This document shows positions 1,811 to 61,847 of a DNA stretch of 64,000 nucleotides, piece by piece. Origin of the DNA: a virus (lineage: Duplodnaviria > Caudoviricetes); IMG/VR virus record IMGVR_UViG_2974753081_000001, positions 64,001 to 128,000 of that record; one strand, 5' to 3'. Within the stretch, counting starts at the first letter, position 1, and each line of letters starts with the position of its first letter. Both the position numbers and the translations under genes were made by a program. The notes beneath the pieces are model-generated. The model did not search any database. It was given only the letters and a program-made list of their open reading frames with translations, and was not told where the DNA came from.

Positions 1811-1846
1811 CCCCACCGACCCCCGACCAATCTTAGGAGCACAATC

Positions 1847-2239
1847 GTGGAACGACCCGACCCACTGGAGCGGTACATGGACTGCCGCGTCGAGGAGATG
1901 ACTCCCTCGGAGATGGCGAGCTACATGAAGCTGTACCTGCGCAATCGGTACAACCTGGAGCTGCCAATGGACGGCATCAAGGAGCGCAAGACCTTCGAGG
2001 CGTTCCGGAAGCGGTATCCCGACGGCGTCGCTGGCCGCATCCTGCAGTGGGTGATGATGCACCACCAGGGGCGCAAGGACGGCGAGTACGTCACCAGCGC
2101 GTTCTTCTCGGCGGCGTTCTCGTGGTGGACGGACAAGATGTTCATGGAGCTGCAGCAGGCCGAGCTGCGGGCGAAGAACGCTCAGGTCGGCGCACACAAG
2201 CTTCAGTCCGCGTTCCTCGACGCCGACTCGATGGCGTGA
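1847..2239 (+). CDS. Hypothetical protein (replication module)
   Basis: RBS AGGAG before GTG; TGATG coupling to the DnaC-like gene. Confidence 0.75.
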   Translation: MERPDPLERYMDCRVEEMTPSEMASYMKLYLRNRYNLELPMDGIKERKTFEAFRKRYPDGVAGRILQWVMMHHQGRKDGEYVTSAFFSAAFSWWTDKMFMELQQAELRAKNAQVGAHKLQSAFLDADSMA

Positions 2240-3021
2240 TGGACATCCGCAACCGCTACCTCTCCGAGGCTGAGGCGCGGCGGCTGTATCGCGACCACCC
2301 TCAGGTGAAGCGGAGTCCGGTGAAGTACTGCCCGACTTGCTCGCTGGAGAGGACCTACGTCTGGCGCGGCGAGACTCGTGACTGCGATTGTGAGCTGCAG
2401 CTCCAGCTGCACAAGCACTACCTCGCGGCGGGCATCGGCGTGAACTACCAGCGGCTGTCCTGGGACGACTACGAGGGCGATCCCAAGATCAAGGTGATGT
2501 GCGACAAGTACATGGCTCGGCACGAGGCGTATGTCGGGAAGGGCATCGGCCTGCTGCTGCACGGCGAGGTCGGCACCGGCAAGACCTTCGGCGCGACCAT
2601 GCTGCTGAAGGACCTCATCAAAGCCGGATATGCTTGTTACTCAACAACTTTCGCGTCTATGATCGAGATGTTCACGGCGGGCTGGAAGTCGAAGGACGAC
2701 CAGCGATACTTCCAAGAAAAAATTGTGTTCTCGGACGTGCTGCTACTCGATGACCTCGGTCGCGAGCTGCGGACCAAGAACAAGCTCTCGGAGTCGACGT
2801 TCGATGATGTGCTCCGGCGGCGGGTTCAGGATGGACGGCCCACGTTCATCACCACGAACATGAACCTGATCGAGATGCAGGAGGGCTACGGCGCGGCGGT
2901 GCTCTCGCTGCTCAGCGAGAAGTCGGTCGCCTATCAGGTGTCCGGCGACGACTACCGCCCTCGCGCCAACCGGCGGATGGTCCAGGAGGTCCAGGACGGC
3001 GAGTGCCGCCCCATCTTCTAG
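2239..3021 (+). CDS. dnaC: DnaC/IstB-like helicase loader ATPase
   Basis: N-terminal CxxC..CxC, Walker A GEVGTGKT, Walker B LLLDDLG, ITTN; start re-called to ATG 2239. Confidence 0.85.
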   Translation: MDIRNRYLSEAEARRLYRDHPQVKRSPVKYCPTCSLERTYVWRGETRDCDCELQLQLHKHYLAAGIGVNYQRLSWDDYEGDPKIKVMCDKYMARHEAYVGKGIGLLLHGEVGTGKTFGATMLLKDLIKAGYACYSTTFASMIEMFTAGWKSKDDQRYFQEKIVFSDVLLLDDLGRELRTKNKLSESTFDDVLRRRVQDGRPTFITTNMNLIEMQEGYGAAVLSLLSEKSVAYQVSGDDYRPRANRRMVQEVQDGECRPIF

Positions 3022-3058
3022 TCCTTCCCACACCCCGACCACTGATGGAGAACCACCC

Positions 3059-4327
3059 ATGATGGAGCTGGAGAAGGCGACCCTGTCGCGCCTCACCTCC
3101 CCCGACGCGGTCCGGCAGTGCTGGGACCTCGGCCTGCGGGCCGACGTTTTCGAGGATCCGCACAACGCCCGCATCTACCAATTCGTCATCGACTACTGGC
3201 TCGACTCATCGATGCGCTCTGCGCCTACCGAGCGCGTCATCACCACCGAGTTCCCCGGCTTCGTCTCCGTCGACAACGACGAGTCGCTGACCTGGCTGGT
3301 GGGCAAGCTGCAGGACCGCTACCGGGCTAATCAGGTGCAGGAGGTCCTGCGCGCTGCTGCCCAGATGTCGGTCGAAGACCCCGAGGGCGCGCTCGCGGAG
3401 ATGTACAACAGCTCGCACCGCATCCGCGAGACCGTGCTCCCCCGGCAGGACCGGGTCGTCGTCCACGAGACCATCGAGTCCCGGCGCGATCGTTACCTGC
3501 AGCGCAGCCACGAGGTCATCGGCGGGGCAACGCTCGGGCTCCGCGAGGTCGACGAGCACACCGGAGGCGTCTTGCCAGGCGAGGTCGCCATCGTCGCGGC
3601 CTACACCAAGACCGGCAAGAGCTTCATGCTGGTGAACGCAGCAGTCGAGGCTGCCAAGCAGGGGTGGGTGCCCTACATCGCCACCCTGGAGCAGAACATC
3701 CCTGAGTTCGAGGACCGCATCGATGCGTTCTACTCCGGCGTCGGCTACGGCGATCTCACGCACGGCAGGCTGTCCCCGGAGGCGCTGCGGCAGCTGTACG
3801 AGGCTCAGGATCGGATGCGCGACGAGAACCACCTGATCCACCTGGAGCGTCCGGGGCGCGGAGATCGCACCGTGGTCAACCTGGTGAACCGGGCTCGGCA
3901 GGTCGGGGCCAACTACCTGGTCATCGACCAGTTGTCCTGGATGGACGCCAAGAGCCGACACCGCGACCGGCGGGACCGCTACGAGGAGCTGATCTACGAC
4001 CTGAAGGAGGAGGTATCGCGCGCGTCGGCGGGTGAGATTCCCTGTTTCATGGCCGTGCAGTACAACCGCCAGGCCGTCTCGACCAAGGGTGAGACTGGTG
4101 GGCTGCACAACATCGCGAACTCCGCCGACATCGAGCAGACCGTCGACATCGCCTACGGCCTGCACCGGACCGAGGAGATGCGCGCCAACAACGCGATGGT
4201 CCTGAAGACGCTGGGCTCCCGGCGTGGCGACATCCGCAACTGGCTGCTCGGCTGGTACCTGGACGAGGAGACCCGCATATTCGTCCGCGACGAGTTCGAC
4301 GGCGACGAGGGCGGGGGCGAGGAGTGA
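3059..4327 (+). CDS. dnaB: DnaB-like replicative helicase
   Basis: Walker A AAYTKTGKS, LVIDQL, AVQYNR, SADIEQTVD. Confidence 0.85.
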   Translation: MMELEKATLSRLTSPDAVRQCWDLGLRADVFEDPHNARIYQFVIDYWLDSSMRSAPTERVITTEFPGFVSVDNDESLTWLVGKLQDRYRANQVQEVLRAAAQMSVEDPEGALAEMYNSSHRIRETVLPRQDRVVVHETIESRRDRYLQRSHEVIGGATLGLREVDEHTGGVLPGEVAIVAAYTKTGKSFMLVNAAVEAAKQGWVPYIATLEQNIPEFEDRIDAFYSGVGYGDLTHGRLSPEALRQLYEAQDRMRDENHLIHLERPGRGDRTVVNLVNRARQVGANYLVIDQLSWMDAKSRHRDRRDRYEELIYDLKEEVSRASAGEIPCFMAVQYNRQAVSTKGETGGLHNIANSADIEQTVDIAYGLHRTEEMRANNAMVLKTLGSRRGDIRNWLLGWYLDEETRIFVRDEFDGDEGGGEE

Positions 4328-5418
4328 AGGGCCTCGGAGGTCTGTCTCGCCGCGAGGAGGCCCAGTCCATGCGCAAGGAGTACCTGCGGCGCATCGACGC
4401 GCAGGCGGTGCTCGACCACTACGGCGCGCAGAACGCTCACCAGGTCGGGGACGAGGTCATCCACTCGTGCCTGCTCGACCGCGTGGACCCGCACCACCAG
4501 AACGGCGATGCGAACCCGTCGGCGAGCCTGAACGTCGAGAAGAAGGTCTACAACTGCTATTCCTACGGCGGCGGCGACATCCTGTGGTTCATCGCGAAGA
4601 TGGAGGGCAAGGAGGACATCGGCCAGATCGTTCCGTTCCTCAGCGATTTTCTCGGGGACTCGACGGTCGACGTATCGACGTTCCTGGAGGAGCTGGAGGG
4701 GTACCTGAAGGCTCCACAGGCGACCGAGGAGCTTCAGACGTACCACCCTCGCGTGCTTCAGCGGTGGGCCAAGTACCACCCGTACCTTCGCAGCCGAGGC
4801 ATCTCCAAGGAGACGGCGGTCGAGTTCAAGCTGGGGTACGACGAGCGCAACGCTCGCATCACCATTCCGCACTGGGTGGACGGCAAGCTCGTCGGCTGGC
4901 AGCGGCGTTCGCTGTCGGACCCGCGCTGGCCTCAGACCGAGGTCGAGCGGGCTCCGGATGGAACCGAGCTGGATGGCGGGCGCATCCCGAAGTACAAGAA
5001 CAGCACGAACTTCCCGAAGGACACGACGCTGTATCGCTACGACGCGGTACGCGATGAGCGGGCGGTCATCGTGGTCGAGTCTCCGATGTCGGTCGCCAAG
5101 GCTCACAGCTGTGGCATCACCAATGTCGTCGCTACCTTCGGATCGAAGGTCAACGACGCCCAGGTCGCGAAGCTGCGGTCCTTCGGGCAGGTGATCGTGT
5201 GGTTCGACGCCGACCCGGCGGGCGAGTACGGCGCGTATCGACTGATCGAGGGTCTGTATCGGCACACGATGGTCACCCACGTGATTCCGGAGCCGGGCAA
5301 GGACATGGCCGACTACGACCGGGACGGGATGATGGAGCGGTTGAAACTGCCGAATATCGAGCCAGGGATTCTGGCTCTCGCACGATTGGAGAAGACCTAT
5401 GGCCGACGACAACGATGA
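4324..5418 (+). CDS. DNA primase (Zn-binding + TOPRIM)
   Basis: HSC..H..D.NPS..YNCYS Zn domain, PKYKNS, VIVVES, WFDADPAG. Confidence 0.88.
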   Translation: MKGLGGLSRREEAQSMRKEYLRRIDAQAVLDHYGAQNAHQVGDEVIHSCLLDRVDPHHQNGDANPSASLNVEKKVYNCYSYGGGDILWFIAKMEGKEDIGQIVPFLSDFLGDSTVDVSTFLEELEGYLKAPQATEELQTYHPRVLQRWAKYHPYLRSRGISKETAVEFKLGYDERNARITIPHWVDGKLVGWQRRSLSDPRWPQTEVERAPDGTELDGGRIPKYKNSTNFPKDTTLYRYDAVRDERAVIVVESPMSVAKAHSCGITNVVATFGSKVNDAQVAKLRSFGQVIVWFDADPAGEYGAYRLIEGLYRHTMVTHVIPEPGKDMADYDRDGMMERLKLPNIEPGILALARLEKTYGRRQR

Positions 5419-5581: not shown

Positions 5582-5582
5582 C

Positions 5583-6197
5583 GTGTGGCACTCCGACCTC
5601 GGGGTGGGGTTCCCGTCGACCAGTCGAGAACTGGTCCTGCGGCCCCGTAACACCGCTGACCCCAACGGCTACTACGCCGATCTCGACCTTCCCCCGTGGG
5701 CTTCAGAGCGTGAGATCGCGCGGCGCTGTCGCTGGCTGCTGTCCCGGTTTCACCCGGACGGCCCCGCCCCGAACGAGGAGCTGTACGCCCACATCGCCAT
5801 GATCTCGAAGGTTCTTCGGGACCCGGCCCAGCGATCGGTCTACGAAGCAACCCCCGAGGGGTCGGTCTACGTGGATGCCGAGGTGGTACGGAAGTTCCAA
5901 GAAGAGGGCAGGGGCGACGAGCTGGCGGCTGCCAATAAAAAATCTGCACCGTCGTACTGGACCTATCTCTCTGACCGGAAGGACTCGCGCGATCGCGAGC
6001 TGGCGGGGCAGTGGTACGAGGTGCTGCTCCGGGCGGCGTACGACGTCGGTTGGAACGGTCGTATCAGACTGCACCTGGTCTCGGATCAGGTGAATGCTGT
6101 TGTGGGAGAGGAGGTTTACGTTTGGAGGCATCGCCCGTCGTATGAGCGGGCGAGGCAATTGCTCGATCCACAGATTTCTGTCAGTGGGGTCGGGTAG
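5583..6197 (+). CDS. J-domain (DnaJ-like) protein
   Basis: YYADLDL...SEREI...SRFHPDG...KVLRDPAQRSVYE, J-domain with HPD. Confidence 0.75.
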   Translation: MWHSDLGVGFPSTSRELVLRPRNTADPNGYYADLDLPPWASEREIARRCRWLLSRFHPDGPAPNEELYAHIAMISKVLRDPAQRSVYEATPEGSVYVDAEVVRKFQEEGRGDELAAANKKSAPSYWTYLSDRKDSRDRELAGQWYEVLLRAAYDVGWNGRIRLHLVSDQVNAVVGEEVYVWRHRPSYERARQLLDPQISVSGVG

Positions 6198-6242
6198 CTT
6201 GGTCGATAGGTGAGAGGTCACCGACTTCGCACCCATCACCTC

Positions 6243-6290
6243 GGCTGACAAGGGCCGAAAAAATATCGAGTTGCAGGGCTGACAAGGGCC
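6243..6290 (+). repeat. 14-bp direct repeat GGCTGACAAGGGCC x2 flanking an A-tract, upstream of SSB
   Basis: Copies at 6243-6256 and 6277-6290. Confidence 0.8.
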
Positions 6291-6319
6291 ACGCATGTAC
6301 CAGAAGAAATGAGTGTGTC

Positions 6320-7318: not shown

Positions 7319-7376
7319 TCTCCCCGACCAATTTCTCTCTGTGTGAGCAGCCTCTAATAGGCGGAAGCTCTCCAAG

Positions 7377-16332: not shown

Positions 16333-16435
16333 TCGCTACCTGAAAGAAAAAATATCGGGTACGGTGGTACAAGCGAGGACAGGCCGAGGGGCCGCTATCT
16401 CGCTAAAAAATACTCACCGACCAAGGAGATTTGCC

Positions 16436-17572
16436 TTGTCAGGACACATGAAGGTGGCCGACATCCAGCCGCTGCTGGAGCGCAACGAGCGCCACATCAC
16501 GGCTCGGTTGCACGACATCACGGTGGACGAGGGTGGCCGCGAGCTGCGGCTGGTGAGCGAGGACGGGACCGACGAGTCCTTCCCGCTCGACGAGGTGGCC
16601 GAGCGTCATCTCGGGCAGTACCTGGACGTCAGCCCGGTCTACCTGAAGAAGTGCCCGTCCACGCTGAAGGCCACCAACCTCAACTACTGGCTGCACCAAC
16701 AGGATCGCGAGCAGGGTGAGGCCACTCTCGTCGTCGGCCCGGACGGCATTGAGAACATCTACTCGCCGGACAAGACGGTCGTGGCCATCCCGCGCATCGC
16801 GGAGTTCATCCACCGCACGTTCAATGGCGAGGACGAGATCGTCAACCTGATCTCCGAGCCCGGTACGTTCCATGCCGACATCATGGTGAACTCGTCGCGC
16901 ATCGAGGTGCCCGGCAACGGTCTCGGCGACCGCCCGGACGAGACCGGGCGCATCACGCAGTTCGGCGCGGGCATCGATCCCCTGGACACCCCCGAGGAGC
17001 GCGAGCAGAAGCTGGCGCAGGCTCGGGCCACCCAGGTGTTCGACATCACCCACGGCGGCGTCCGGATCATCGCTGATCCCGGCAAGAGCAAGGCTCCGGT
17101 CGTCGAGCGGTACTTCAACCGGCTCATCTGCACCAACGGCATGACCATGCCGGTGCCGGATCACTCGATCACCGTGCGCGGCAAGACGGTCGATGAGGTC
17201 ATCCAGTCGATGGAGGAGGCGGCGGAGTTCCTGCTGGGGTCGATGGACGATGCCCTGGAGGAGTACAAGGCGCTGTCGGAGGTCATCGTGCCGGGCAACC
17301 CGCTGCTGTTCATCCAGCAGCTCGGTCGCGAGCAGGGGCTCCCCGATCGCATCATCCAGCAGGCGATGGACTACGCGGGCGGCGCGGGCTTCGGTCGCAC
17401 CGACAGGGACGTGACGTCGTTCGACGTGATGCAGATTTTCACCGGCCTGGCCAACCGCAGCGGCGTTCGGTACTCGACTCAGCGTCGGCTGCAGAACACC
17501 GCAGGTCTGTTCGTACATCGCGGAGACGACCTGCTGCATCGCTGCACTCAGTGCGAGCGCCCGCTGCTCTGA
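16436..17572 (+). CDS. DUF932-like protein (start TTG 16436 or ATG 16448)
   Basis: RLICTNGM motif; RBS AAGGAG; C-terminal CxxC. Confidence 0.65.
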   Translation: MSGHMKVADIQPLLERNERHITARLHDITVDEGGRELRLVSEDGTDESFPLDEVAERHLGQYLDVSPVYLKKCPSTLKATNLNYWLHQQDREQGEATLVVGPDGIENIYSPDKTVVAIPRIAEFIHRTFNGEDEIVNLISEPGTFHADIMVNSSRIEVPGNGLGDRPDETGRITQFGAGIDPLDTPEEREQKLAQARATQVFDITHGGVRIIADPGKSKAPVVERYFNRLICTNGMTMPVPDHSITVRGKTVDEVIQSMEEAAEFLLGSMDDALEEYKALSEVIVPGNPLLFIQQLGREQGLPDRIIQQAMDYAGGAGFGRTDRDVTSFDVMQIFTGLANRSGVRYSTQRRLQNTAGLFVHRGDDLLHRCTQCERPLL

Positions 17573-17919: not shown

Positions 17920-17968
17920 CGATGGCGAGCGAGGGCTCGTCACACTCCCCGACCAAAGGAAAAATCTC

Positions 17969-18406
17969 ATGGAGACCCGTACCCTGATCGAGCCGTCTGC
18001 TCAGGTCATCACCATCACCACCCTCAAGCCCGGCGACACCTACAAGCGCCTGGTGAAGAACTACTCCGACACCTACGACCTGCGCATCGGCGTGGTCACC
18101 GACGTGTTGAACAACGGCTCCGAGGCGGTCCTCACCGCGCTGGAGTTCTCTGGCAGCTACAGCACCGCCGAGGCCGAGCTGAAGGTGTTCGGCGGCGACA
18201 AGGACCTCGCGCTGTTCGCGACGACTCCCGAGGAGGTCGGGGTTTACCTCGATGACGTGAACGAGCGGGCTCACCAGATGGCGGAGTCCAAGCGGCGCGA
18301 GCTGGAGAAGGCCGAGGCCGTCGTGCGCGCGGTTGAGGACACCCTGGCGAGGGCACGCGGTGGTCAGCTGTCGGCTCCCGTGGTCGAGCGCCAGGTCGAG
18401 AGCTGA
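17969..18406 (+). CDS. Hypothetical protein
   Basis: CCCGACC + AAGGA RBS; start re-called. Confidence 0.75.
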   Translation: METRTLIEPSAQVITITTLKPGDTYKRLVKNYSDTYDLRIGVVTDVLNNGSEAVLTALEFSGSYSTAEAELKVFGGDKDLALFATTPEEVGVYLDDVNERAHQMAESKRRELEKAEAVVRAVEDTLARARGGQLSAPVVERQVES

Positions 18407-21018: not shown

Positions 21019-21088
21019 GTGTTGACACTACGTCTGCCCAGTCGGCCACTGTCCTTCGCACGCTGGGTGACCAGCGTAGTGTTAACAC
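21019..21088. promoter_or_regulatory. Inverted repeat made of two GTAGTGTYRACAC motifs
   Basis: GTGTTGACACTACG (21019-32) ... CGTAGTGTTAACAC (21075-88). Confidence 0.65.
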
Positions 21089-21138
21089 GAACCCCGACAG
21101 ATTCTCTCGACAAATTATTGACAAGGACGTGACAAGCA

Positions 21139-21821: not shown

Positions 21822-21849
21822 GTAACGATTCCCGACCAAGGAGCGATGT
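21822..21849 (+). promoter_or_regulatory. SigD-like promoter GTAACG-N16-CGATGT
   Basis: Family member; spacer contains CCCGACCAAGGAG. Confidence 0.65.
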
Positions 21850-21856
21850 ACATCCC

Positions 21857-22057
21857 ATGAGCGATCAAATGCACACCAAGGCGTGGTTCACCGGAGCTGC
21901 CACGGGTAGCGCGGATAACGCCGATGACGAGTGGCGGGACTTCAGGCTCGACGGCGAGCGCGCTATCGAGGTGTCGTTTCTGGTGCCCGATTCGGCCATC
22001 GATGGGGTCCGCAAGCTGCTGAACGAGCGCGGCACGCTCACCTTCGCCAAGGCGTAA
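21857..22057 (+). CDS. Hypothetical protein
   Basis: Start re-called after promoter/RBS. Confidence 0.55.
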   Translation: MSDQMHTKAWFTGAATGSADNADDEWRDFRLDGERAIEVSFLVPDSAIDGVRKLLNERGTLTFAKA

Positions 22058-24634: not shown

Positions 24635-24852
24635 CTTTCGACCGGTACGCACCGGCCTGGGTGACCGATGACATCGCGCACGTGGGTTCCTGGAAGGTCA
24701 TCGACCTACGAACGGGTGAGGCCGTGCGGAACTACAAGGGTTCGGTGCGGCTGGGCGGCATCGACACCGCCAAGAACCTGGCGGACGCACTGAACCGGGG
24801 CGACATCGAGCCGAAGTTCGGCACCGAGACGATTGTGGAGGAAGAGCAGTGA
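24631..24852 (+). CDS. Hypothetical protein
   Basis: ATGA coupling. Confidence 0.55.
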   Translation: MTFDRYAPAWVTDDIAHVGSWKVIDLRTGEAVRNYKGSVRLGGIDTAKNLADALNRGDIEPKFGTETIVEEEQ

Positions 24853-25064
24853 AGGAAACGATGGAGCGCCTCCAGGCGGGGCTGCGAGCGAAGGGGATCG
24901 AGTTCCCGTTCGTCAAGATCGGCATGACCGACTTCGGCATCAGCGTCATCGCCTACACCGACGACGACGAGGGCGACGTGGTGGCCTGCCGCTCCCGACA
25001 GAACGTAGGGGTCGAGGCTCTGGCCGAGCTGATGTCCGAGCTGGCTGATGAGGTCGAGGCATGA
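24849..25064 (+). CDS. Hypothetical protein
   Basis: GTGA coupling. Confidence 0.55.
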   Translation: MKETMERLQAGLRAKGIEFPFVKIGMTDFGISVIAYTDDDEGDVVACRSRQNVGVEALAELMSELADEVEA

Positions 25065-25396
25065 GGCTGTCGGAGGCCAAGGGGTTCAACCTCAGCTCGA
25101 CCCAGGACGAGTGGTACATGCACGTGGTCGAGGAGCAGGACCCGATCGAGCTGGAGGACGGCGCGATGATCCCCTGCCGCCGGACGATGGTGTTCGGCCC
25201 CTTCACCAAGGAGGAGATGAAGTCCTCGGCTCGGCTGGCCGTCTCCGACCACCTGACTCACGTCGAGGGTGTCCACTGGGAGCGCACCAAGGTCCACACG
25301 ACGATCGGCCCGGCCCCGGAGACGATGGTCTCGGTCCGGGAGACGATGGCTCGCTATCGCGACCGCCACCGACACGACCACGACGGGATGTACTGA
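25061..25396 (+). CDS. Hypothetical protein
   Basis: ATGA coupling. Confidence 0.6.
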   Translation: MRLSEAKGFNLSSTQDEWYMHVVEEQDPIELEDGAMIPCRRTMVFGPFTKEEMKSSARLAVSDHLTHVEGVHWERTKVHTTIGPAPETMVSVRETMARYRDRHRHDHDGMY

Positions 25397-25524
25397 GATG
25401 CGGCGCTTTTGTGCTCTGGCAAGGTATTACTTCAATCAGTTCCGCGACAACCCGCTCACCACGTTCGCCGACAAGCCGGGCGAGCCGGACCGGGACCACA
25501 ACTCCGTTACCGGGCGAGGGCTCA

Positions 25525-25552
25525 GTAACGAAACGCCGAGGGGCACCGATAC
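25525..25552 (+). promoter_or_regulatory. SigD-like promoter GTAACG-N16-CGATAC
   Basis: Family member, intergenic. Confidence 0.7.
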
Positions 25553-25591: not shown

Positions 25592-25789
25592 ATGTTCATC
25601 CCGCTCAAGCGAGCGCATGTCACTTACGACGACGGCATCCACGTCCAGAGCAACATGCCCTTCATCGACTTCGGCCCCGTCACCATCGGTAGCGAGGTCT
25701 ACTGGTCCGGTCGTCGCGCCGCCCAGTCCCCGGAGCGCACGTTCATCAATTCCCGTCACGTCCACGTCGTCAGGGAGGTGTCGGAATGA
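25592..25789 (+). CDS. Hypothetical protein
   Basis: GAGGAGG RBS. Confidence 0.6.
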   Translation: MFIPLKRAHVTYDDGIHVQSNMPFIDFGPVTIGSEVYWSGRRAAQSPERTFINSRHVHVVREVSE

Positions 25790-26037
25790 TGAGGCGCACG
25801 CTGTCTCGGGTCCGTGAGTACTTCGGCTTCACCTCTGCCCGTGAGCAGGCGGCGGCGACCTATGGCCGTCACGCTGCCGGTCCGTTCACGCCTCCGTTCC
25901 ACGCGGTGTGGGGGTACGGCCCCGTCAATCCGTTCTCGGGTGGTCGTCACCGTCCTGAGAACATCCCGTGGTGGGCAGGCATCCTGAGTGACGACGAGGT
26001 GCGTCCGTCTGCTGTGTCTCAGCTGGCGGCGTCATGA
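25786..26037 (+). CDS. Hypothetical protein
   Basis: GGAGG RBS, coupled. Confidence 0.55.
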   Translation: MMRRTLSRVREYFGFTSAREQAAATYGRHAAGPFTPPFHAVWGYGPVNPFSGGRHRPENIPWWAGILSDDEVRPSAVSQLAAS

Positions 26038-26213: not shown

Positions 26214-26407
26214 GCGAGCGCAACATCACGACGCTGTCGATCCGCACCCGGCATCCCGAGGACTATGTGCTCATCAACGAGGCCGACGGCACTCGCTGGC
26301 GCGGGAGCGAAGACATGGGCTGGCTGCGCGACGACATCGAGGACGACCGCCTCTGCGGCTGCGGTGCGCGTGGCGATCACGACGAGACTCACGAGGATGC
26401 GCAGTGA
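26210..26407 (+). CDS. Hypothetical protein
   Basis: ATGA coupling. Confidence 0.55.
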   Translation: MSERNITTLSIRTRHPEDYVLINEADGTRWRGSEDMGWLRDDIEDDRLCGCGARGDHDETHEDAQ

Positions 26408-39683: not shown

Positions 39684-39973
39684 TCCCCACGCGCGAGATC
39701 GTCCGGGAGTTCGACCGGCGGTATTCGCTCTACGCCGAGCCGACGTCGAAGGGGATCACGGTGTACTCCGACCCCAGCGAGCCCGACATCCTGACGGTTC
39801 TGCACCTGCCCGAGGACGGCAAGTGGTGGTGGCGCACGGCCATGCACGAGGACGAGAACGGAACCCCGGTGCTCGCGAATCAGTGGGCCGCGAATGGCGA
39901 CATGGACATCCCCACCCTGGTCCGGATGGTCGCCATCACCATCTTCGGCACGATCTGTATCTCTCCGAAGTAA
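39680..39973 (+). CDS. Hypothetical protein
   Basis: GTGA coupling. Confidence 0.55.
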   Translation: MIPTREIVREFDRRYSLYAEPTSKGITVYSDPSEPDILTVLHLPEDGKWWWRTAMHEDENGTPVLANQWAANGDMDIPTLVRMVAITIFGTICISPK

Positions 39974-39997
39974 CGCTCCGGCGGTCTCCGCCGATGT
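39970..39997 (+). promoter_or_regulatory. SigD-like promoter GTAACG-N16-CGATGT
   Basis: Family member. Confidence 0.7.
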
Positions 39998-40026
39998 ACA
40001 GATCACACCCCGACCAAGGAGAAAAT

Positions 40027-40482
40027 ATGGACGAGCTGATGTCCGGCATGACTGAGATGTGCGGCGTGGCGCATCCCGACAACCGTTCGGACGCCAACCT
40101 GATCACCTACTGCTACCTGAACGATGGTCATGAAGGACCGCATCGTGATCCGGAGGGGCGGGCCTGGGTCGGCAACTTCCGTGTGACCCCCGTTAATACC
40201 TCGCCCGACAAGGACTTCCATGATCTCGTGGCCCGAGTCGCGGCGATCGAGGAGAAGCTGGACATCACGCCGGAGTCCGGTCCGAAGAACCCGGCATACA
40301 TCCTCGGCTACAACATCCTGCTGCGATCACTGGTGGACCAGATCGAGAACCTGCACCAGCGAAGCGACACCACCGGCAAGTGCGTCGGATGCCACAAGCC
40401 TTGGCCTTGTCCCAGTGCTGACGCGATAGCCGAGCATCGTGCGCTCGTGGAGGACTTTCGCGCACGGGGGTCGCTACGATGA
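40027..40482 (+). CDS. Hypothetical protein (Cys/His motifs)
   Basis: CCCGACCAAGGAG before ATG; C..C...WPC. Confidence 0.65.
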   Translation: MDELMSGMTEMCGVAHPDNRSDANLITYCYLNDGHEGPHRDPEGRAWVGNFRVTPVNTSPDKDFHDLVARVAAIEEKLDITPESGPKNPAYILGYNILLRSLVDQIENLHQRSDTTGKCVGCHKPWPCPSADAIAEHRALVEDFRARGSLR

Positions 40483-45253: not shown

Positions 45254-45279
45254 CTCCACCCCCGACCAAGGAGAACCTC

Positions 45280-45699
45280 ATGAAGAAGACCATCGCTGCC
45301 CTCGCGGCTGCCGCCGCCATCACGCTCGCCACCGGCTGCACCATCGAGACAGTCAGCGAGCCCACGACCACGACCACCCCGGCCCCGCTGCCGGTCGTCA
45401 CCACGACCACCGTCGACACTCCGCCCCCGCCGACCACCACCGAGATCGACAGTGAGTGGGTGGCCGATCGCGCCTACATCGCTGCGCTCGACCAGCAGGG
45501 CATCGACTACCCGACCGAGCAGGACGCCATCGACCTCGGCCACTCGATCTGTGAGGCCCTGGACTCCGGCAACTCCCCGCAGGAGCTGATCCGTGTCGGC
45601 GTGGACGCCAGCGGCATGGACTCCCAGGACGTCGCCTTCATGGTTGGCGCGGCCATCGGGTCGATCTGCCCCCGCCACGACGATCTGATCCCCGAGTAA
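45280..45699 (+). CDS. Lipoprotein with DUF732-like domain
   Basis: Lipobox LATGC; D.AYIAAL..QGI...G..IC..L..G ... ICP. Confidence 0.8.
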   Translation: MKKTIAALAAAAAITLATGCTIETVSEPTTTTTPAPLPVVTTTTVDTPPPPTTTEIDSEWVADRAYIAALDQQGIDYPTEQDAIDLGHSICEALDSGNSPQELIRVGVDASGMDSQDVAFMVGAAIGSICPRHDDLIPE

Positions 45700-45723
45700 C
45701 ACTTCGCTGGGCCGCAGCGATAC
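45696..45723 (+). promoter_or_regulatory. SigD-like promoter GTAACA-N16-CGATAC
   Basis: Family member. Confidence 0.65.
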
Positions 45724-45756
45724 ACCCAACACACCCCGACCAGAGGAGAAAAAATC

Positions 45757-46203
45757 ATGAGTACTCGCAGTGTCACCGGCATCTGGAAGCCCGAAGGTGA
45801 TCCGATCGGAGTGGGCGTCTACGTCCACAGCGATGGCTATCCGGAGGGGCGTCTACCGGACCTGAAGAAGATGATCACGCGCGACGGTCCCGAGAAGGTA
45901 GTCCAGACGATCCTGTCGGCCAAGCGTGGCGGCTGGTCCTACCTCGACGTCGAGTACGCCAACAATTATCTCGGCGAGGACCGTGCGAAGCTCGTGCCGG
46001 GCTACGGCCTGATGTTCCTCGACGGAGATCACGAGCCCAAGCCGCTGAGACACAGTGAGGTCATCAGGACTTTCTGGTGTGAGTACGCCTACTACATCGA
46101 CGTCGAGACCGGCGACATCCACTGGTACGAGAGCAGCGACCCCACCGAGCACGTCGAGCTGTTCTCCGACTACGTGACCGAGGTCAAGAAGGTGGATTCC
46201 TGA
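45757..46203 (+). CDS. Conserved-type phage hypothetical protein
   Basis: MSTRS ... Y.H.DGYP ... EYAY. Confidence 0.75.
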   Translation: MSTRSVTGIWKPEGDPIGVGVYVHSDGYPEGRLPDLKKMITRDGPEKVVQTILSAKRGGWSYLDVEYANNYLGEDRAKLVPGYGLMFLDGDHEPKPLRHSEVIRTFWCEYAYYIDVETGDIHWYESSDPTEHVELFSDYVTEVKKVDS

Positions 46204-47491: not shown

Positions 47492-47797
47492 ATGCAGTCG
47501 GTGTTCCAGCTCCCGTGGCTGGACCCCACCGACCGCTCCGAGAATTGGCGATCCCGCTCGATCTGCACTCCGGAGCACGACCACATCCTGTTCTCGGAGA
47601 AGCGTCGCGGATGGCGACGCGATGAAGACCTCCGTGCAGCTGCTCGGCTGTGCGGATCATGTCCGGTCCGGATGGACTGCCTGCTCTGGGCAACCAGGAC
47701 CGGACAAACCCACGGAGTCTGGGGAGGAAAAGACTTCAGTGCTCGACCCGCGCGTACAACGCAGATGCGCTCGGTACACCCGACCAGAGGAGAATGA
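47492..47797 (+). CDS. whiB: WhiB-family transcription factor
   Basis: C..(x)..CGSCPVRMDC, GVWGG. Confidence 0.85.
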   Translation: MQSVFQLPWLDPTDRSENWRSRSICTPEHDHILFSEKRRGWRRDEDLRAAARLCGSCPVRMDCLLWATRTGQTHGVWGGKDFSARPARTTQMRSVHPTRGE

Positions 47798-47798
47798 A

Positions 47799-48101
47799 AT
47801 GTCTACTGCCACACCGCCTGTCGGCTGGTACAAATGCACGCCCACCCAGGCATGGATGCTGGCCGTCCTGCAGTCCGAGGGCGAGGTCCACTCCAACACC
47901 GACATCGGCCCGGCCAAGCGCGCCGCGAACAAGCGCACCGCTCGCTCGCTGGTCGACCTCGGCGTCGCGACCTGGAGTCGCCCCGAGAACGGCCAGCACT
48001 GGAAGATCATCGAGCGCCGCCCCAAGCCGCTGACCCGCAAGGGCAAGAAGTCGGACGTCCCGCGCGCCAAGGTCGAGATCACGGCGCTGGTGGAGCGATA
48101 G
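47799..48101 (+). CDS. Hypothetical protein
   Basis: CCCGACC + GAGGAG RBS. Confidence 0.6.
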   Translation: MSTATPPVGWYKCTPTQAWMLAVLQSEGEVHSNTDIGPAKRAANKRTARSLVDLGVATWSRPENGQHWKIIERRPKPLTRKGKKSDVPRAKVEITALVER

Positions 48102-50435: not shown

Positions 50436-50636
50436 ATGATGATCGAATGCCGTGTCCGCGCTGATGTGGACATCAAGAAGTGGGCCGAGCTGTACGACAC
50501 CGACGGCCAAAAGATCTCTGAGGTCCGCAAGGACATCCGCACCTGGATGCGCGAGACGGTGATCGACGCGATGGAGGACGAGGGCTTGCTGCTGCTCGAC
50601 CCCGACGGCAAGCCGGTAACGAACCTGTTCGAGTAG
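50436..50636 (+). CDS. Hypothetical protein
   Basis: AAGGAG RBS. Confidence 0.55.
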   Translation: MMIECRVRADVDIKKWAELYDTDGQKISEVRKDIRTWMRETVIDAMEDEGLLLLDPDGKPVTNLFE

Positions 50637-50643
50637 CCGATAC
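50616..50643 (+). promoter_or_regulatory. SigD-like promoter GTAACG-N16-CGATAC
   Basis: Family member. Confidence 0.7.
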
Positions 50644-50685
50644 CCACTTCGACCCCGACCAACCACCCCCGACCAAGGAGTCCCT

Positions 50686-51321
50686 ATGCCCATCCTGACC
50701 ATCGACGGCATCGAGGTGACGATGACCGTCGCCGAGTTTGTCGAGTACCAGCGGCTGTCGAAAGCCGAACCGCCCCCGACGCCCGAGCCGGAGCCTCGCA
50801 AGACCCGTGGCAGCTCGCGCAAGCGCAACGACGCCGAACGTCGTCGCATGGAGCTGCAGCGGCAGGGGTACGCCAACGTCACCAACCTGATGAGCACCAT
50901 CGTGTTCGTGCATTCGGTGCTGGAGTATGTGGTGCCCGGCTCCGAGAGCTACGACATGGACGGTGTCGAGGGTCGGCACGGCTGGCTGCTCTCGCGCGAG
51001 TCGGGGGAGGTGAACCGGCTCAACCGCTATGTCTCGGTCGCGCGCTCGCTGCAGCCCGGCGTCGGCGAGTACCTCTGGCCCCCGGCCATCGCGGCGGCGC
51101 TCATCTGCATCGAGATCGACTACGGCGTCGACACCGCCATTGCGGCCCAGGGCGCGCTGTCGCGGCGCGGCGTGATCACTGCGGTGGTGAAGCTGCACTC
51201 CAAGGCGTTCCTGAAGCTGTCGGAGCAGGATCGCGCCGCCGGTCACATCCGGCTGCACCGGAACCAGCAGATGGAGGTCTGGAGCGGCACCTATGACCTG
51301 CTCGTGAAGGCGGTGGAGTGA
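50686..51321 (+). CDS. Hypothetical protein
   Basis: Two CCCGACC + AAGGAG. Confidence 0.7.
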   Translation: MPILTIDGIEVTMTVAEFVEYQRLSKAEPPPTPEPEPRKTRGSSRKRNDAERRRMELQRQGYANVTNLMSTIVFVHSVLEYVVPGSESYDMDGVEGRHGWLLSRESGEVNRLNRYVSVARSLQPGVGEYLWPPAIAAALICIEIDYGVDTAIAAQGALSRRGVITAVVKLHSKAFLKLSEQDRAAGHIRLHRNQQMEVWSGTYDLLVKAVE

Positions 51322-51337: not shown

Positions 51338-51365
51338 GTAACGCTCTGGCTCGCTCGGACGATGT
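51338..51365 (+). promoter_or_regulatory. SigD-like promoter GTAACG-N16-CGATGT
   Basis: Family member, intergenic. Confidence 0.7.
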
Positions 51366-51398
51366 ACTGGGCAGGCCATCCCGACCGAAGGAGAGAAC

Positions 51399-51713
51399 AT
51401 GGCAGAACAAGGCGACCCCGCTCAGGTCCTCAGCGGCCTCGGGGTCGGCGGCATGCGCCCACTCGCGGCGCTGGAGGAGTCGCGGCAGGCAGGCGAGGGC
51501 TTTCAGGCCATCGCCGCCTTTGTCGATTGGCTGCGAAACAACGGCATGGGTATCGGGCTGCGCCCCGTGCTCCCCGACGCCCGGTTGATCCCGCTGACGG
51601 ACCCGGCGGAGGACTTCGCTGCTGCGTTCTACGACATCGACATCGAGGCACTACATGCCGATCGTGCCGAGTACATCTATCGGCAGCAGGCAGCTCGCGG
51701 CGGTCGGCTGTGA
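51399..51713 (+). CDS. Hypothetical protein
   Basis: CCCGACC + AAGGAG. Confidence 0.65.
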   Translation: MAEQGDPAQVLSGLGVGGMRPLAALEESRQAGEGFQAIAAFVDWLRNNGMGIGLRPVLPDARLIPLTDPAEDFAAAFYDIDIEALHADRAEYIYRQQAARGGRL

Positions 51714-54881: not shown

Positions 54882-55102
54882 TGAGCTTCAACTACACCAA
54901 GCCGCAACTCACGAAGGGAGACCCGGAGACCTACTGGCACTGCTGGTGGTTCCTCGGGTGCCCCGAGTGTGGTACGAAAAAATACCGAACCCAGGAGATG
55001 CGGTCCTCCGCTCTCACCCAATTCCATCACCGGCACGGCGCTACCAAGCAGTGGACCGTCGAGCTGCCTGCTCCACTATCCGGCTTCAAGCCCCCGACCT
55101 AA
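54881..55102 (+). CDS. Hypothetical protein
   Basis: TGATG coupling; CPEC. Confidence 0.5.
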   Translation: MSFNYTKPQLTKGDPETYWHCWWFLGCPECGTKKYRTQEMRSSALTQFHHRHGATKQWTVELPAPLSGFKPPT

Positions 55103-55128
55103 GGCCCCAGGCCACCAAGGAGAAAATC

Positions 55129-55650
55129 ATGACCGCCTTCGAGAACCGCCACGGGTTCACTCTGCATCGCACCCCCAGCCACGGCGATTTCGACCGCAAG
55201 ACCAACACCGTGTTCGACGAGAATGTGGACCGGTGGGTGAACGCCGATGCGTTCTATGCCCACTACGGCATCGATGCACCGACCTACACCGACGCCGACA
55301 CCCGCATGCCGTTCCGCAAGGCGTTCGCGATCGTCGTGGGCTCGGTGGCCGCGTTCCTGGTCTTGCTCGCGCTGACCGGCGGTCTCGGAGGCGGGCACGA
55401 CGACACCTCGGAGCCGGTGACCAAGGCCGACCGATTCCTCGCGCAGATGGAGGAGGAGGAGATCGCCAACACCCGTGGCGACACCGGGCAGCTGGAGGCC
55501 GGGTTCTGGATTTGCGGCCTGGCTCAGGACGGCTACTCCTATAACGAGATCGTCAACACCGTCTCCGACAACTCGCCGGGGCTCGGCTACGGCAAGTCGA
55601 TGGTGCTGGTGTCCTACGCCATTGAGATCCTCTGCCCGCAGTACAGCTGA
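55129..55650 (+). CDS. Membrane protein with C-terminal DUF732-like domain
   Basis: TM segment, D.FL.....I...G.WIC.....G ... A...LCP.Y. Confidence 0.7.
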   Translation: MTAFENRHGFTLHRTPSHGDFDRKTNTVFDENVDRWVNADAFYAHYGIDAPTYTDADTRMPFRKAFAIVVGSVAAFLVLLALTGGLGGGHDDTSEPVTKADRFLAQMEEEEIANTRGDTGQLEAGFWICGLAQDGYSYNEIVNTVSDNSPGLGYGKSMVLVSYAIEILCPQYS

Positions 55651-58977: not shown

Positions 58978-59015
58978 GGCGGGGGCTGTAACGAATCGGC
59001 CCCCGCCACCGATCA
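58978..59015 (+). promoter_or_regulatory. Terminator-like hairpin overlapping SigD-like promoter GTAACG-N16-CGATCA
   Basis: GGCGGGGGCTG-TAACGAAT-CGGCCCCCGCC; CGAT at 59010. Confidence 0.6.
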
Positions 59016-59042
59016 CCCACCACCCCGACCAAGGAGAAAATC

Positions 59043-59522
59043 ATGGACTTCGCCACCGCACTCACCCTGTCGATCAACGAGGAGTGGGGTCGTCACGTCG
59101 CGGCCAACGAACGACTGGGCGGACTGCCGTCGACACCGCGCGACGTGTTCGCTCTCACCTGCGCCAATTTCATCATCGCCGCGCGCGTCCATTCCATGTG
59201 CGAGTTTCCCGACGACACCACCTACGGCACGTTCTACAACTGCCGCGAGTACGGCGTGACCTACCATCGGCGCGGCTGGACGTTCGCGCTCTACGAGCAC
59301 CGCAACTCCGACCAGATCATTCTCAACGGCTGCCCCGACCCCGAGGTGCAGAGCTACGGGCCGTATGGCGACGTGGACGACAAGCACAACTACTTCGTTG
59401 CGCTCGGCCCCGAGGACTACTGGCCCGCTGCGGACGCACTGAAGCAGGCGCTGTCCGTTGCGAGCCCCGCCCTGACTCGGCAGGAGATGAAGGACCTGTT
59501 CGACTCGGACTTCGCACGCTAG
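59043..59522 (+). CDS. Hypothetical protein
   Basis: CCCGACCAAGGAG; FYNCREYG, EHRNSD. Confidence 0.7.
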   Translation: MDFATALTLSINEEWGRHVAANERLGGLPSTPRDVFALTCANFIIAARVHSMCEFPDDTTYGTFYNCREYGVTYHRRGWTFALYEHRNSDQIILNGCPDPEVQSYGPYGDVDDKHNYFVALGPEDYWPAADALKQALSVASPALTRQEMKDLFDSDFAR

Positions 59523-59555
59523 GCTCCCAACACCCCCGACCGAAAGGCTGTCCCG

Positions 59556-59825
59556 ATGATCACTCCCACCCCTGGCAACAAGGTCCTGGAATCGCCGGAC
59601 GGCGTGCCCTACGACCGCGTCCTGCATGCGTTCCTGGACACCCGGCACGTGGCCGTCGACTCCGAGGGCAAACCCGTGGGTCCAACCATGGGCGACCCGT
59701 TCGACCGCTGCATGATCCCCGTCGCGGTCTCAATGGACGTCTGCGACCACTCGACGGCGATCTGCAACGGCTGCCTGCAGGAGTGGGCCATCGACTACGA
59801 CTTCGCCGAGCTGACCGTATCCTGA
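59556..59825 (+). CDS. Hypothetical protein
   Basis: CCCGACC upstream. Confidence 0.55.
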   Translation: MITPTPGNKVLESPDGVPYDRVLHAFLDTRHVAVDSEGKPVGPTMGDPFDRCMIPVAVSMDVCDHSTAICNGCLQEWAIDYDFAELTVS

Positions 59826-61458: not shown

Positions 61459-61470
61459 GTCACCAGCTAG

Positions 61471-61525
61471 GACTTGCACTAAACGCTACACCTGTGTATA
61501 TTTAGTGGTGTCAGGGACGCAGTCC
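61471..61525 (+). promoter_or_regulatory. SigA-type promoter cassette 10
   Basis: TTGCAC-N17-TATATT, TACACCTGTGTA, GGAC-GCA-GTCC. Confidence 0.85.
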
Positions 61526-61548
61526 ACCACCTCCACGAAGGAGTCACC

Positions 61549-61791
61549 ATGAAGACCATCGACATCCAGACCATCATCGCCTGCGCCGCCGGACGCATCG
61601 TCGGTCGAGTCGGAGCCGAGCGCATTGTCGACTTCGCCTACAGCCCCGAGCTTCATCCCTCCGCCCAGGCGCTGTTCGCCAAGGAGATCGACCGCGAAAT
61701 GCGCAACGTGATCAGCCGCCTTCCGGTCACCGTCCGTCGCGAGGCCCTGGAGCTTGCGGTCGTCGAGCGCGCTGAGGCCCTCACCTTCTGA
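61549..61791 (+). CDS. Hypothetical protein
   Basis: AAGGAG RBS. Confidence 0.65.
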   Translation: MKTIDIQTIIACAAGRIVGRVGAERIVDFAYSPELHPSAQALFAKEIDREMRNVISRLPVTVRREALELAVVERAEALTF

Positions 61792-61847
61792 TCCGATCCC
61801 GGAGGGGCATCCTGCCCCTCCCCCACCCCCGACCTGAGGAGGTCCCC

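Follow-up and report, generated by a model that had tools for sequence, protein, structure and literature searches.

The heptamer CCCGACC(A) forms an exact tag directly 5' of the Shine-Dalgarno (SD) sequence of about 22 genes in this 136,319-bp actinobacteriophage genome, and a conserved stem-loop encoded in the structural arm carries the complement of tag and SD together. From these sequence relationships we tentatively read CCCGACC(A) as an address tag by which an antisense RNA would occlude the ribosome-binding sites (RBSs) of about 22 non-structural genes, a possibility to which we give rather less than an even chance; through such a tag, a single small RNA may regulate many genes simultaneously. 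The further proposal that the exact tag fused to the SD would mark about 20 early or accessory mRNAs with a common address, with a single late hairpin RNA serving as an RNA-only temporal off-switch in several unrelated phage lineages, is slightly more doubtful still.

In the 40 nt 5' of gene starts across the whole genome, CCCGACC is the most frequent heptamer and also leads the 42 composition-matched permutations. With gene starts taken from our own, uncurated codon-bias caller, the 40 nt upstream of predicted starts hold 23 of the 64 plus-strand copies in the whole genome, where 3.1 would be expected (hypergeometric p = 1.4e-14), which bears out the enrichment foreseen in the original prediction. 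Intergenic sequence, 9.3% of the genome, holds 26 of the 64 copies. The window, i.e., the whole stretch of 64,000 nucleotides that was analysed, contains 41 plus-strand and 12 minus-strand copies (shuffle mean for both strands, 25). Forward matches to the composite pattern CCCGACC-N0-12-RGGA-N5-12-RTG number 18, against one in reverse and none for the reversed control, as expected from the earlier description of a sense-strand, non-palindromic motif. The 21 single-mismatch variants show no enrichment, with 25 of 600 copies upstream of starts (4.2% vs 4.9% expected), and the two bases 3' of the tag are A or G in 19/23 and 22/23 sites, respectively.

All places in the window where the motif had been noticed do carry it to within 1-2 nt, with the qualifications that the site near 16417 has a one-mismatch form and that the copy near 7322, already described as distant from its start, is not of the RBS type. 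The sites are the following (window coordinates, plus strand):

1822-1849 (+): tag 1822-1828, SD TAGGAG, probable in-frame GTG start at 1847, which places a second copy (1856-1862) inside the coding sequence
3034-3061 (+): tag, weak SD, ATG 3059 (DnaB-like helicase), in a 37-nt intercistronic gap
7323-7329 (+): intergenic copy, 47 nt or more 5' of every candidate start of the DnaE-like gene; not RBS type
16416-16450 (+): one-mismatch form ACCGACCA abutting AAGGAG; start TTG 16436 or ATG 16448
17948-17971 (+): tag-AAAGGA-ATG 17969, 3' of a tRNA-Arg / tRNA-like region
21822-21859 (+): tag (21831) and AAGGAG within a GTAACG-N16-CGAT spacer; ATG 21857, an atypical 13 nt past the SD
28873-28903 (+): tag-N10-AGGAG-GTG 28901, the sole tag behind a SigA-type TACAC-NN-GTGTA cassette
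30788-30810 (+): tag-AGAGAGAGAG-ATG 30808 (weak HTH match)
33138-33160 (+): tag-AGAAGGA-ATG 33158, preceded by a hairpin
34002-34079 (+): GTAACG-N16-CGAT, tag 34051-34057 (23 nt past CGAT), SD, ATG 34077 (Ltp-like lipoprotein)
34680-34702 (+): tag-AGAAGGAG-GTG 34700, preceded by a terminator-like hairpin
36951-37020 (+): GTAACG..CGAT with one tag in the spacer (36963) and one 11 nt past CGAT (36989); SD GAGGAGG, ATG 37018
39970-40029 (+): GTAACG..CGAT, tag 40009 (13 nt past CGAT), CCCCGACCAAGGAG, ATG 40027
45261-45282 (+): CCCCGACCAAGGAG-ATG 45280 (DUF732 protein), in a 26-nt gap and thus too short a gap for a promoter
45696-45759 (+): GTAACA..CGAT, tag 45735 (13 nt past CGAT), AGAGGAG, ATG 45757
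47779-47801 (+): tag-AGAGGAG-ATG 47799
50616-50688 (+): GTAACG..CGAT, tags 50654 and 50668, the second of which (CCCCGACCAAGGAGTC) complements the hairpin RNA over 16 nt; ATG 50686
51338-51401 (+): GTAACG..CGAT, tag 51380 (16 nt past CGAT), GAAGGAG, ATG 51399
55093-55131 (+): tag overlapping the upstream stop codon, 29 nt 5' of ATG 55129 (DUF732 protein); SD separate
58988-59045 (+): GTAACG..CGAT, tag 59024 (10 nt past CGAT), CCCCGACCAAGGAG, ATG 59043
59535-59558 (+): tag-GAAAGG-ATG 59556, in a 33-nt gap
61828-61850 (+): tag-TGAGGAGG-ATG 61848, preceded by a terminator-like hairpin

Tagged genes lie almost entirely in the non-structural region at 58-128 kb (21/22), and the set is rich in small accessory genes of one genome region; a single late-region gene, at genome position 20106, is also tagged. 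The tag ends 11-29 nt from the start codon (median 13.5) and, in 15 of 21 sites, 0-3 nt from the SD, within G-poor, C/A-rich leader or intercistronic RNA and inside the region covered by the 30S subunit. Upstream of position -7, information content is about zero and no shared repeat was found.

The relation to promoters is looser than first described. The tag had been said to follow most SigD-type promoters; it does follow 7 of the 13 GTAACG-N16-CGAT promoters and is missing after 6, but "most" is too strong, with only 7 of 22 tagged genes behind such a promoter. The other 15 tagged genes lack it, and about 13 sites have no recognisable promoter of any kind. Likewise, the absence from SigA-type cassettes holds for 10 of 11, but the cassette at 28833 is tagged. 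At the 7 promoters, the distance from CGAT (-10) to the tag varies from 10 to 23 nt, without the fixed spacing to -35 GTAACG or -10 CGAT expected of an ECF (SigD-type) promoter element, and some tags sit in gaps of just 26-37 nt between genes. Because the motif is also sense-only, non-palindromic and tied to the RBS, an RNA-level signal, as originally proposed, is the best reading. Action at the DNA level, as a promoter element or transcription-factor binding site, could appeal to the tagged promoters, to the occurrence of inverted copies and to three tags inside 16-17 bp GTAACG..CGAT spacers (window 21831, window 36963 and position 80576 of Rhodococcus phage Finch, which shares the tag; about 0.1 expected by a rough estimate). 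We nevertheless regard it as highly improbable: the distance from CGAT to the tag is even more variable in Finch (10 to 40 nt), the promoter-less sites are not preceded by a conserved -35-like element, the tag in an unrelated actinophage contig (G122, see below) lies about 30 nt 3' of a separate SigA-like promoter, and the constant partner of the tag is SD plus start codon, which a DNA-binding factor would have no reason to follow.

A small RNA had been among the partners suggested for such a signal, and this option gains concrete sequence support from a candidate antisense stem-loop outside the window, in the structural arm 3' of the capsid gene (G000:C1:25595-25672; locus L148:996-1073). It reads 5'-GUGACUCC[UUGGUC]GGGGUCAU-3' with the core CUCC[UUGGUC]GGGG, and its plus strand at 25599-25612, CTCCTTGGTCGGGG, matches the reverse complement of the module CCCCGACCAAGGAG (5 copies) without a mismatch. 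In total, the hairpin offers a 14-16 nt complement of tag and SD (G000:C1:25597-25612). At 16 nt, it is longer than any other tag-related match between an initiation region and the complement of intergenic sequence, a length reached in only 2 of 200 shuffles. Finch carries the same element at the syntenic spot, after gp24 and before gp27, and so does a metagenome contig (L181) in which the neighbouring protein is 60% identical. In a three-way alignment of these copies, no block other than CTTGGTCGG is invariant; all three share the loop UUGGUC, and the hairpin is kept via paired changes, with 7 of 20 predicted pairs differing on both sides. At the sequence level, the complementarity of the hairpin and its syntenic conservation are clear.

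Antisense control of RBSs requires an encoded complement in a non-coding, co-oriented position, and the hairpin indeed occupies a 202-nt non-coding gap between plus-strand genes in their orientation, which is what suggests that it is transcribed; no minus-strand start codon was found after the antisense copy. A conserved stem-loop near a terminator is likewise expected and found, as a GC-rich, terminator-like hairpin with a U-run comes after it, although a simple terminator scan made no call there. We propose that a predicted late phage RNA from the structural arm would carry both hairpins and that its loop UUGGUC would first pair with GACCAR of the tag, with pairing then extending over the flanking CCC(C) and AAGGAG to form a duplex of 9-16 bp that covers the RBS. 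Tagged early and middle mRNAs would consequently no longer be translated once late transcripts build up, and the tag would supply a specificity that a bare anti-SD sequence does not have. Expression of the hairpin RNA, pairing in vivo, repression and timing are the parts of this scheme that we infer.

Several observations favour the antisense model. The need for the exact heptamer (23/64 copies upstream of starts vs 25/600 for the variants) has a sharpness that fits base pairing, the purines after the tag can both pair with the UU of the loop, and the position of the tag within the initiation region fits occlusion. Spatial logic speaks for it too, with tagged genes on one side of the genome and the hairpin in the structural arm, and co-occurrence of tag and antisense copy across phages appears to favour it as well. 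On the other hand, median duplex energies of -27.6 kcal/mol for tagged and -18.8 kcal/mol for untagged initiation regions separate the two only weakly in this genome, where 64 of 174 untagged regions reach -20 kcal/mol or below. An untagged late gene at genome position 46829 pairs best of all with the hairpin. This pairing, the weak energy separation, the tag at 20106 and the result of the terminator scan count against the antisense model. Furthermore, inverted duplication of an RBS module could have produced the antisense copy: part of the hairpin forms automatically from the quasi-palindromic module, and minus-strand readings of ordinary tagged sites also yield hairpins with a TTGGTC loop.

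The tag was absent from E3, a Bxz1-type phage, Skog and Phrappuccino, and neither the tag nor plus-strand CTTGGTCGG was found in E3, ScottMcG or Skog; Finch has two copies of CTTGGTCGG, both intergenic. E3 and ScottMcG have C/A-rich, start-associated leaders of their own (ccaaca-CTCAAGGAG and CACNCAC, respectively). In E3, no antisense copy accompanies this start-associated module, which counts against the antisense model. CCCGACC(A)AGGAG is carried by unrelated IMG/VR actinophage contigs, upstream of 24 genes in G122, 9-15 in G125 and about 5 in G123, and follows gene orientation on both strands. No proteins common to this phage and G125 or G123 were found at a tblastn E of 1e-4 or better, and G122 gave two short weak matches only. 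An antisense copy of 13 nt lies in a co-oriented non-coding gap of G125 itself. For G122, no antisense copy was found in the 105 kb searched (record 85% complete), which, with 24 tagged genes, counts against the antisense model.

The identical heptamer in phages without shared proteins is not explained by a private small RNA and points to a host-side reader, the main rival to the antisense model. The 30S platform, bS1 or another host RNA-binding factor would then recognise the tag as a standby site or enhancer of translation initiation that boosts uncoupled de novo initiation, with antisense copies being secondary or incidental. Its constant place immediately before the SD within G-poor, C/A-rich RNA, the other C/A-rich leaders of the related phages E3 and ScottMcG, and its presence wherever uncoupled initiation is needed, promoter or not, agree with this idea. 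We still consider it unlikely, given that an all-or-none reliance on seven bases is unusual for S1-type or compositional enhancers and that the composite pattern is rare in 121 Mycobacteriales genomes (2-6 per roughly 5 Mb, about twice the reversed control). The suggested search for a complement succeeded in the phage genome but not in host rRNA: three Mycobacteriales genomes contain neither GTCGGG nor GGTCGG in their 16S rRNA, and GGTCGGG occurs in 23S rRNA at non-conserved positions only. Epsilon-type enhancers such as that of the T7 gene 10 leader are also short elements just 5' of the SD but pair with 16S rRNA, for which the tag lacks a complement in these three genomes.

A host enzyme would account for the tag in unrelated phages if CCCGA|CCA were a processing or 5'-end-defining site at which RNase E frees the cistron with a short leader starting before the SD. 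Mycobacterial RNase E cuts single-stranded C-rich RNA 5' of cytidine, preferably with 1-2 purines upstream (RR|CNU; PMC10641625), and GA|CC, the only purine-purine-C step in otherwise G-less leaders, fits RR|C; many sites are also internal to polycistronic RNA. The +3 base of the tag, however, is A rather than the preferred U, and so loose a specificity would explain neither the invariant CCC and the absence of one-mismatch forms nor the conserved complementary hairpin, so that we think this improbable. To much the same degree, we doubt that the tag serves as an operator at which a sequence-specific RNA-binding protein, encoded by phage or host, would repress or activate a regulon at the level of translation, as T4 RegA does. 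Sharp sequence specificity, sense-strand restriction, location inside the ribosome footprint and concentration on small accessory genes of one region would all suit such a protein, but tblastn found no protein shared with G125 or G123 (nor with G122 beyond the weak matches), no candidate RNA-binding domain was seen among the few proteins scanned, and the antisense hairpin would be left unexplained.

The earlier comparison to the start-associated sequences (SAS) of Cluster K mycobacteriophages was apt. In the excerpts of the literature used here, SAS have been catalogued since 2011 and no mechanism is given. According to these excerpts, the Cluster K SAS is GGGATAGGAGCCC, includes the SD and is accepted with up to two mismatches, and an ESAS, made up of two 17-bp inverted repeats, immediately precedes about half of the sites (PMC3203893; PMC12699233). 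Like the SAS as described there, the tag is a short conserved sequence beside the start codons of roughly 10-20 genes, has a single orientation, lies mostly outside the structural module and precedes different genes in related phages. Unlike the SAS, it is a heptamer 5' of a separate SD without mismatch tolerance; it resembles GGGATAGGAGCCC only in GGAG and falls outside the two-mismatch limit, and no ESAS-type 17-bp inverted repeats were found upstream of it. Its carriers are large Bxz1-like genomes and unrelated high-GC contigs rather than Cluster K siphoviruses, and no RNA like the complementary hairpin is mentioned for the SAS in the excerpts (PMC3203893; PMC12699233). What this phage adds is a tag with all-or-none sequence dependence, its recurrence in unrelated actinophages and the conserved complementary hairpin, which jointly make the question of mechanism a matter for a simple experiment. 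If the pairing model is true, a large lytic phage times the translation of many orphan genes through one small RNA, and a translational switch both portable and orthogonal would become available for Mycobacteriales. Should the reader be a host factor instead, translation initiation or mRNA processing in Mycobacteriales would include a component not recognised so far.

Phage antisense RNAs that occlude RBSs include c4 of P1/P7, acting on icd-ant, and sar of P22, acting on ant. The candidate RNA resembles them as a co-oriented, terminator-adjacent stem-loop with loop and arm complementary to an RBS region of its own phage, but it would address about 20 dispersed targets through one tag, where c4 and sar serve an immunity circuit by acting on one or two sites, and its source would be a late structural operon in a phage that appears to be lytic. 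In its logic, with one factor shutting off many early mRNAs at their initiation regions, the model resembles T4 RegA, a protein repressor of translation that acts on many early mRNAs at a loosely defined AU-rich site, whereas the candidate factor here is an RNA and the site an exact GC-rich heptamer.

CCCGACC, the core of the start-associated tag CCCGACC(A), occurs 41 times on the plus strand and 12 times on the minus strand of the window, where shuffled sequences average 25 copies over both strands. The complete virus record comprises 136,319 bp at around 65% G+C (the window being bases 64001-128000) and carries almost all genes on the plus strand; genome-wide, 26 of the 64 plus-strand copies of CCCGACC are intergenic, although intergenic sequence makes up only 9.3% of the genome. 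The original prediction of a start-associated motif was borne out by 23 copies within 40 nt before predicted starts against 3.1 expected (hypergeometric p = 1.4e-14), using approximate gene coordinates from a caller made for this analysis that takes codon bias and Shine-Dalgarno (SD) sequences into account (198 genes). No heptamer is more frequent in this 40-nt zone, not even any of the SD-derived words. Among 42 permutations of the same letters CCCGACC likewise ranks at the top, followed by its own frame-shifted overlaps, and the 21 one-mismatch variants remain at background (25 of 600 copies before starts, 4.2% versus 4.9% expected), which indicates that all seven positions of the tag matter. 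Since neither permutations nor one-mismatch variants are enriched, a C/A-rich leader composition was ruled out as the full explanation. The composite pattern CCCGACC-N0-12-RGGA-N5-12-RTG gave 18 forward matches and a single reverse one, with none for a reversed control, in agreement with the earlier claim that the tag is sense-strand only. The motif is genuine.

Alignment of the sites on the motif revealed a conserved span of (A/C)(C/T)-CCCGACC-A-R, preceded by seven G-poor bases (at most 3 G over 23 sites) and by no conservation further upstream in these 23 sites. The end of the tag lies 11-29 nt (median 13.5) from the start codon and 0-3 nt from the first SD-like tetramer at 15 of 21 sites, with distances of up to 11 nt at the others; the fullest form of the module is CCCCGACCAAGGAG (n = 5). 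At window 1847-1879, our caller had placed a start at ATG 1877; an in-frame GTG at 1847, preceded at a suitable distance by the tag and a TAGGAG SD, is more likely the true start.

Promoters are a less constant neighbor of the tag, as apparent from the two classes that had been described as SigD-type and SigA-type:

Promoter classes and their association with the tag
GTAAC[AG]-N15-17-CGAT promoters (SigD-type): 13 copies, tag after 7 of them, 10-23 nt past CGAT
TACAC-NN-GTGTA cassettes (SigA-type): 11 copies, tag after 1 of them (window 28833)

The tag had been said to follow most SigD-type promoters and to be absent from SigA-type cassettes; the first statement holds for a narrow majority, with six promoters lacking it, and the second for ten cassettes, with the one at window 28833 as the exception. 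Two GTAAC[AG]..CGAT promoters contain the tag within their spacer, around 13 tagged genes have no recognizable promoter, several tags sit in intergenic gaps of only 26-37 nt, and one overlaps the preceding stop codon. Because spacing varies and many sites are promoterless, we rejected the tag as a component of the GTAACG..CGAT promoter and regard the ribosome-binding site as its constant neighbor, which argues for action at the RNA level as originally proposed. Recognition of the tag as RNA would also fit its exact sequence, its sense-only orientation, and its location within the ribosome footprint. A phage sigma factor behind the tag was discarded as well, given that the Pfam Sigma70_r2 model had no match in the phage genome.

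Nearly all tagged genes (21 of 22) lie at 58-128 kb, a region of 140 genes, and a single one in the structural left arm with its 52 genes. They are mainly small and of unassigned function, the recognizable products being a DnaB-like helicase, two DUF732 proteins, and an Ltp-like lipoprotein. With identities of 85.5% for the major capsid protein (around 78% for Bxz1-type mycobacteriophages and Rhodococcus phage E3) and 59% for the DnaB-like helicase, Rhodococcus phage Finch appears by protein comparison to be the closest relative among those available, yet a distant one; a few short DNA matches came from Gordonia phages. Finch lacks homologues of 16 of the 22 tagged genes, and just two of the remaining six carry CCCGACC upstream in Finch, so that we rejected conservation of the tag at orthologous genes and view it as associated with accessory genes rather than with given orthologues. 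Upstream of the Finch DnaB-like gene, CCCGACC lies around 50 nt from the start and does not adjoin the SD.

Finch itself has 8-11 tagged genes (eight forward matches to the composite pattern, one reverse, and one for the control) and around 16 GTAACG..CGAT promoters, some followed by the tag at varying distance and one with the tag in its spacer. The composite pattern is at background in E3, Phrappuccino, Skog, and ScottMcG (Bxz1-type). Relatives without the tag have different start-associated leaders of their own: E3 (NC_021347) has ccaaca-CTCAAGGAG around 14 times (e.g., at 5881, 54808, and 130548), in some cases inside repeated TAAGCT promoter cassettes, and ScottMcG (NC_011269) has CAC[C/T/A]CAC before starts 20-30 times. 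Exact-pattern scans of IMG/VR, one of them with an exact 14-mer, returned chiefly single chance matches, from which contigs with many tags were picked out by recounting. These are G122 (105 kb, 70% G+C, provirus class) with 24 tagged genes and tags oriented with the genes on both strands, G125 (69 kb) with 9-15, and G123 (56 kb) with around 5. Essentially no proteins are shared between them and the studied phage; the tag, unexpectedly, is not confined to its lineage. Most tags of G122 belong to a recurring cassette in which a promoter and a 5' hairpin precede CCCGACCAAGGAGG. Around 20 such cassettes (e.g., at 30438-30510 and 32500-32560 of this record, which is the one behind locus L124) show an operator-like palindromic CACGATGTGTGCTA promoter, the hairpin, CCCGACCAAGGAGG, and the start, and their hairpins are short, variable, and maintained through paired changes.

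A plus-strand search of the whole genome for the complement of the tag, as the original prediction had suggested, uncovered CTCCTTGGTCGGGG at positions 25599-25612 of the genome. This site falls outside the window, within the structural arm, in a 202-nt gap 3' of gene 24642-25550. The sequence matches the reverse complement of CCCCGACCAAGGAG exactly, its complementarity reaches 15-16 nt against three targets, and no start codon follows downstream when the locus is read on the minus strand. The RNA folds as GUGACUCC[UUGGUC]GGGGUCAU (-10.6 kcal/mol) and is followed by a GC-rich hairpin of 10 bp and UUUUCG; this second hairpin went uncalled in a strict scan for terminators. The pair is non-coding, flanked by two conserved structural-arm genes, and recurs as follows:

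Occurrences of the UUGGUC stem-loop with terminator-like hairpin
G000:C1:25595-25672 (L148:996-1073), plus strand: whole-genome record of the studied phage and its hairpin-bearing locus
NC_054724 21906-21968: phage Finch
L181:2336-2425: metagenomic contig

In Finch, CTCTTGGTCGGGA lies 39 nt past the stop of gp24, the homologue of gene 24642-25550, folds as GAAUCUC[UUGGUC]GGGAUUC ahead of a GC hairpin and UUU, and has the homologue of gene 25753-26970 as the next conserved gene. L181 encodes a homologue of the latter (60% identity) and at the syntenic place has GACTCC[TTGGTC]GGATGTC with a clear terminator behind it; its hairpin arm has GGA for GGGG, which would predict the tag form UCCGACCA in its early genes. 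CTTGGTCGG is the sole invariant block of the three-way alignment, for which RNAalifold retained both hairpins with both-sided change in 7 of 20 pairs (three sequences). Rfam had no family matching the hairpin, IMG/VR had no related loci for the gene adjoining it, a metagenome search gave one useful contig (L181), and a scan for the hairpin-plus-terminator pattern found no additional relatives. Finch has three copies of TTGGTCGG, all intergenic. Besides the one in the stem-loop, two anti-tag copies TTGGTCGG(G) lie 29 nt apart in its non-coding stretch NC_054724 24588-25206 (619 nt), and one of these is complementary over 16 nt to the initiation region of a gene located at 109541. In G125, a non-coding, co-oriented gap contains a separate antisense copy of 13 nt, CTTGGTCGG is absent from the plus strands of E3, ScottMcG, and Skog, and the 105 kb of G122, the contig richest in tags, contain no antisense copy. 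A long hairpin (window 31950-32060; folding z-score -2.0) lies in a 406-nt apparently non-coding gap, and its 15-nt loop includes GGUCGG, part of the tag complement, with the following G beginning the stem.

Chance alone is expected to give a genome this large a 13-nt complement to one initiation region or another, and the module is quasi-palindromic (CCCC...GGAG), so any inverted copy forms an inner hairpin, as ordinary tagged sites do when read on the minus strand; the element could have originated as an inverted duplicate of the ribosome-binding site module. Its significance lies in being complementary to a repeated module, reaching 16 nt (2 of 200 shuffles), and recurring at a syntenic site. 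Duplex energies separate tagged regions weakly in the studied GC-rich genome and better in Finch; ranking by them was among the approaches set aside. The hairpin RNA is predicted to form its best duplex (-37.8 kcal/mol) with CCCCGGCCAAGGAGG, which differs from the tag module by one base and makes up the initiation region of a large gene of the late class (genome 46790-46831, outside the window).

Of the readings considered, we tentatively rank first that the hairpin RNA, whose expression we infer from its orientation, would occlude tagged ribosome-binding sites in antisense, because this conserved complementary stem-loop in a putative late transcript is the only concrete partner found. By form it resembles classical phage antisense RNAs, and a literature search for the combined features found nothing comparable to a dispersed regulon of around 20 ribosome-binding sites. 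That unrelated phages also carry the tag keeps a host-side reader alive; in the form of an enhancer or standby site it seems rather unlikely. Pairing with host rRNA, where a search for the complement had also been suggested, failed: neither GTCGGG nor GGTCGG is present in 16S rRNA from three Mycobacteriales genomes, and 23S rRNA of two genomes has GGTCGGG only at positions that do not match between them. Across 121 Mycobacteriales genomes, there are 2-6 matches to the tight composite pattern per ~5 Mb, around twice the reversed control and at a density around hundred-fold below that of the phage; an unpublished genome, G008, is part of the counts, and no claim depends on it alone. We therefore rejected both rRNA pairing and a general host signal, and both-strand counts of YCCTTGGTCGG in 41 genomes were uninformative.

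Cleavage of the tag by RNase E is improbable; in its favor, GA|CC matches the published RR|C preference of the mycobacterial enzyme (PMC10641625). We give an equally low chance to the tag being a protein operator. Action at the DNA level, against which the constant association with ribosome-binding sites argues, is the least credible of these. The readings do not rule one another out: a phage antisense RNA could have co-opted a host-read enhancer as its address.

Cluster K start-associated sequences (SAS) are the nearest described system and resemble the tag in position, orientation, copy number, and non-structural bias; their function was still just "proposed" in 2025 (PMC3203893; PMC12699233). 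The tag differs in sequence, as had been stated from the outset, in mismatch tolerance, and in having no ESAS, which places it outside the SAS family though similar in kind. A literature search for the 8-mer retrieved primer sequences only.

Two further features were noted. Window 5582-6319 contains GGTCGGG and CTTGGTCG with 4 nt between them and may be non-coding, its plus-strand ORF 5583-6197 (204 aa) being poorly supported by codon bias in our own caller. The palindrome-containing GTAGTGTTAACAC, which looks like an operator, is found at five intergenic sites just 5' of gene starts (window 21075-21091 and 62164-62176; genome ~2170, 61086, and 136273).
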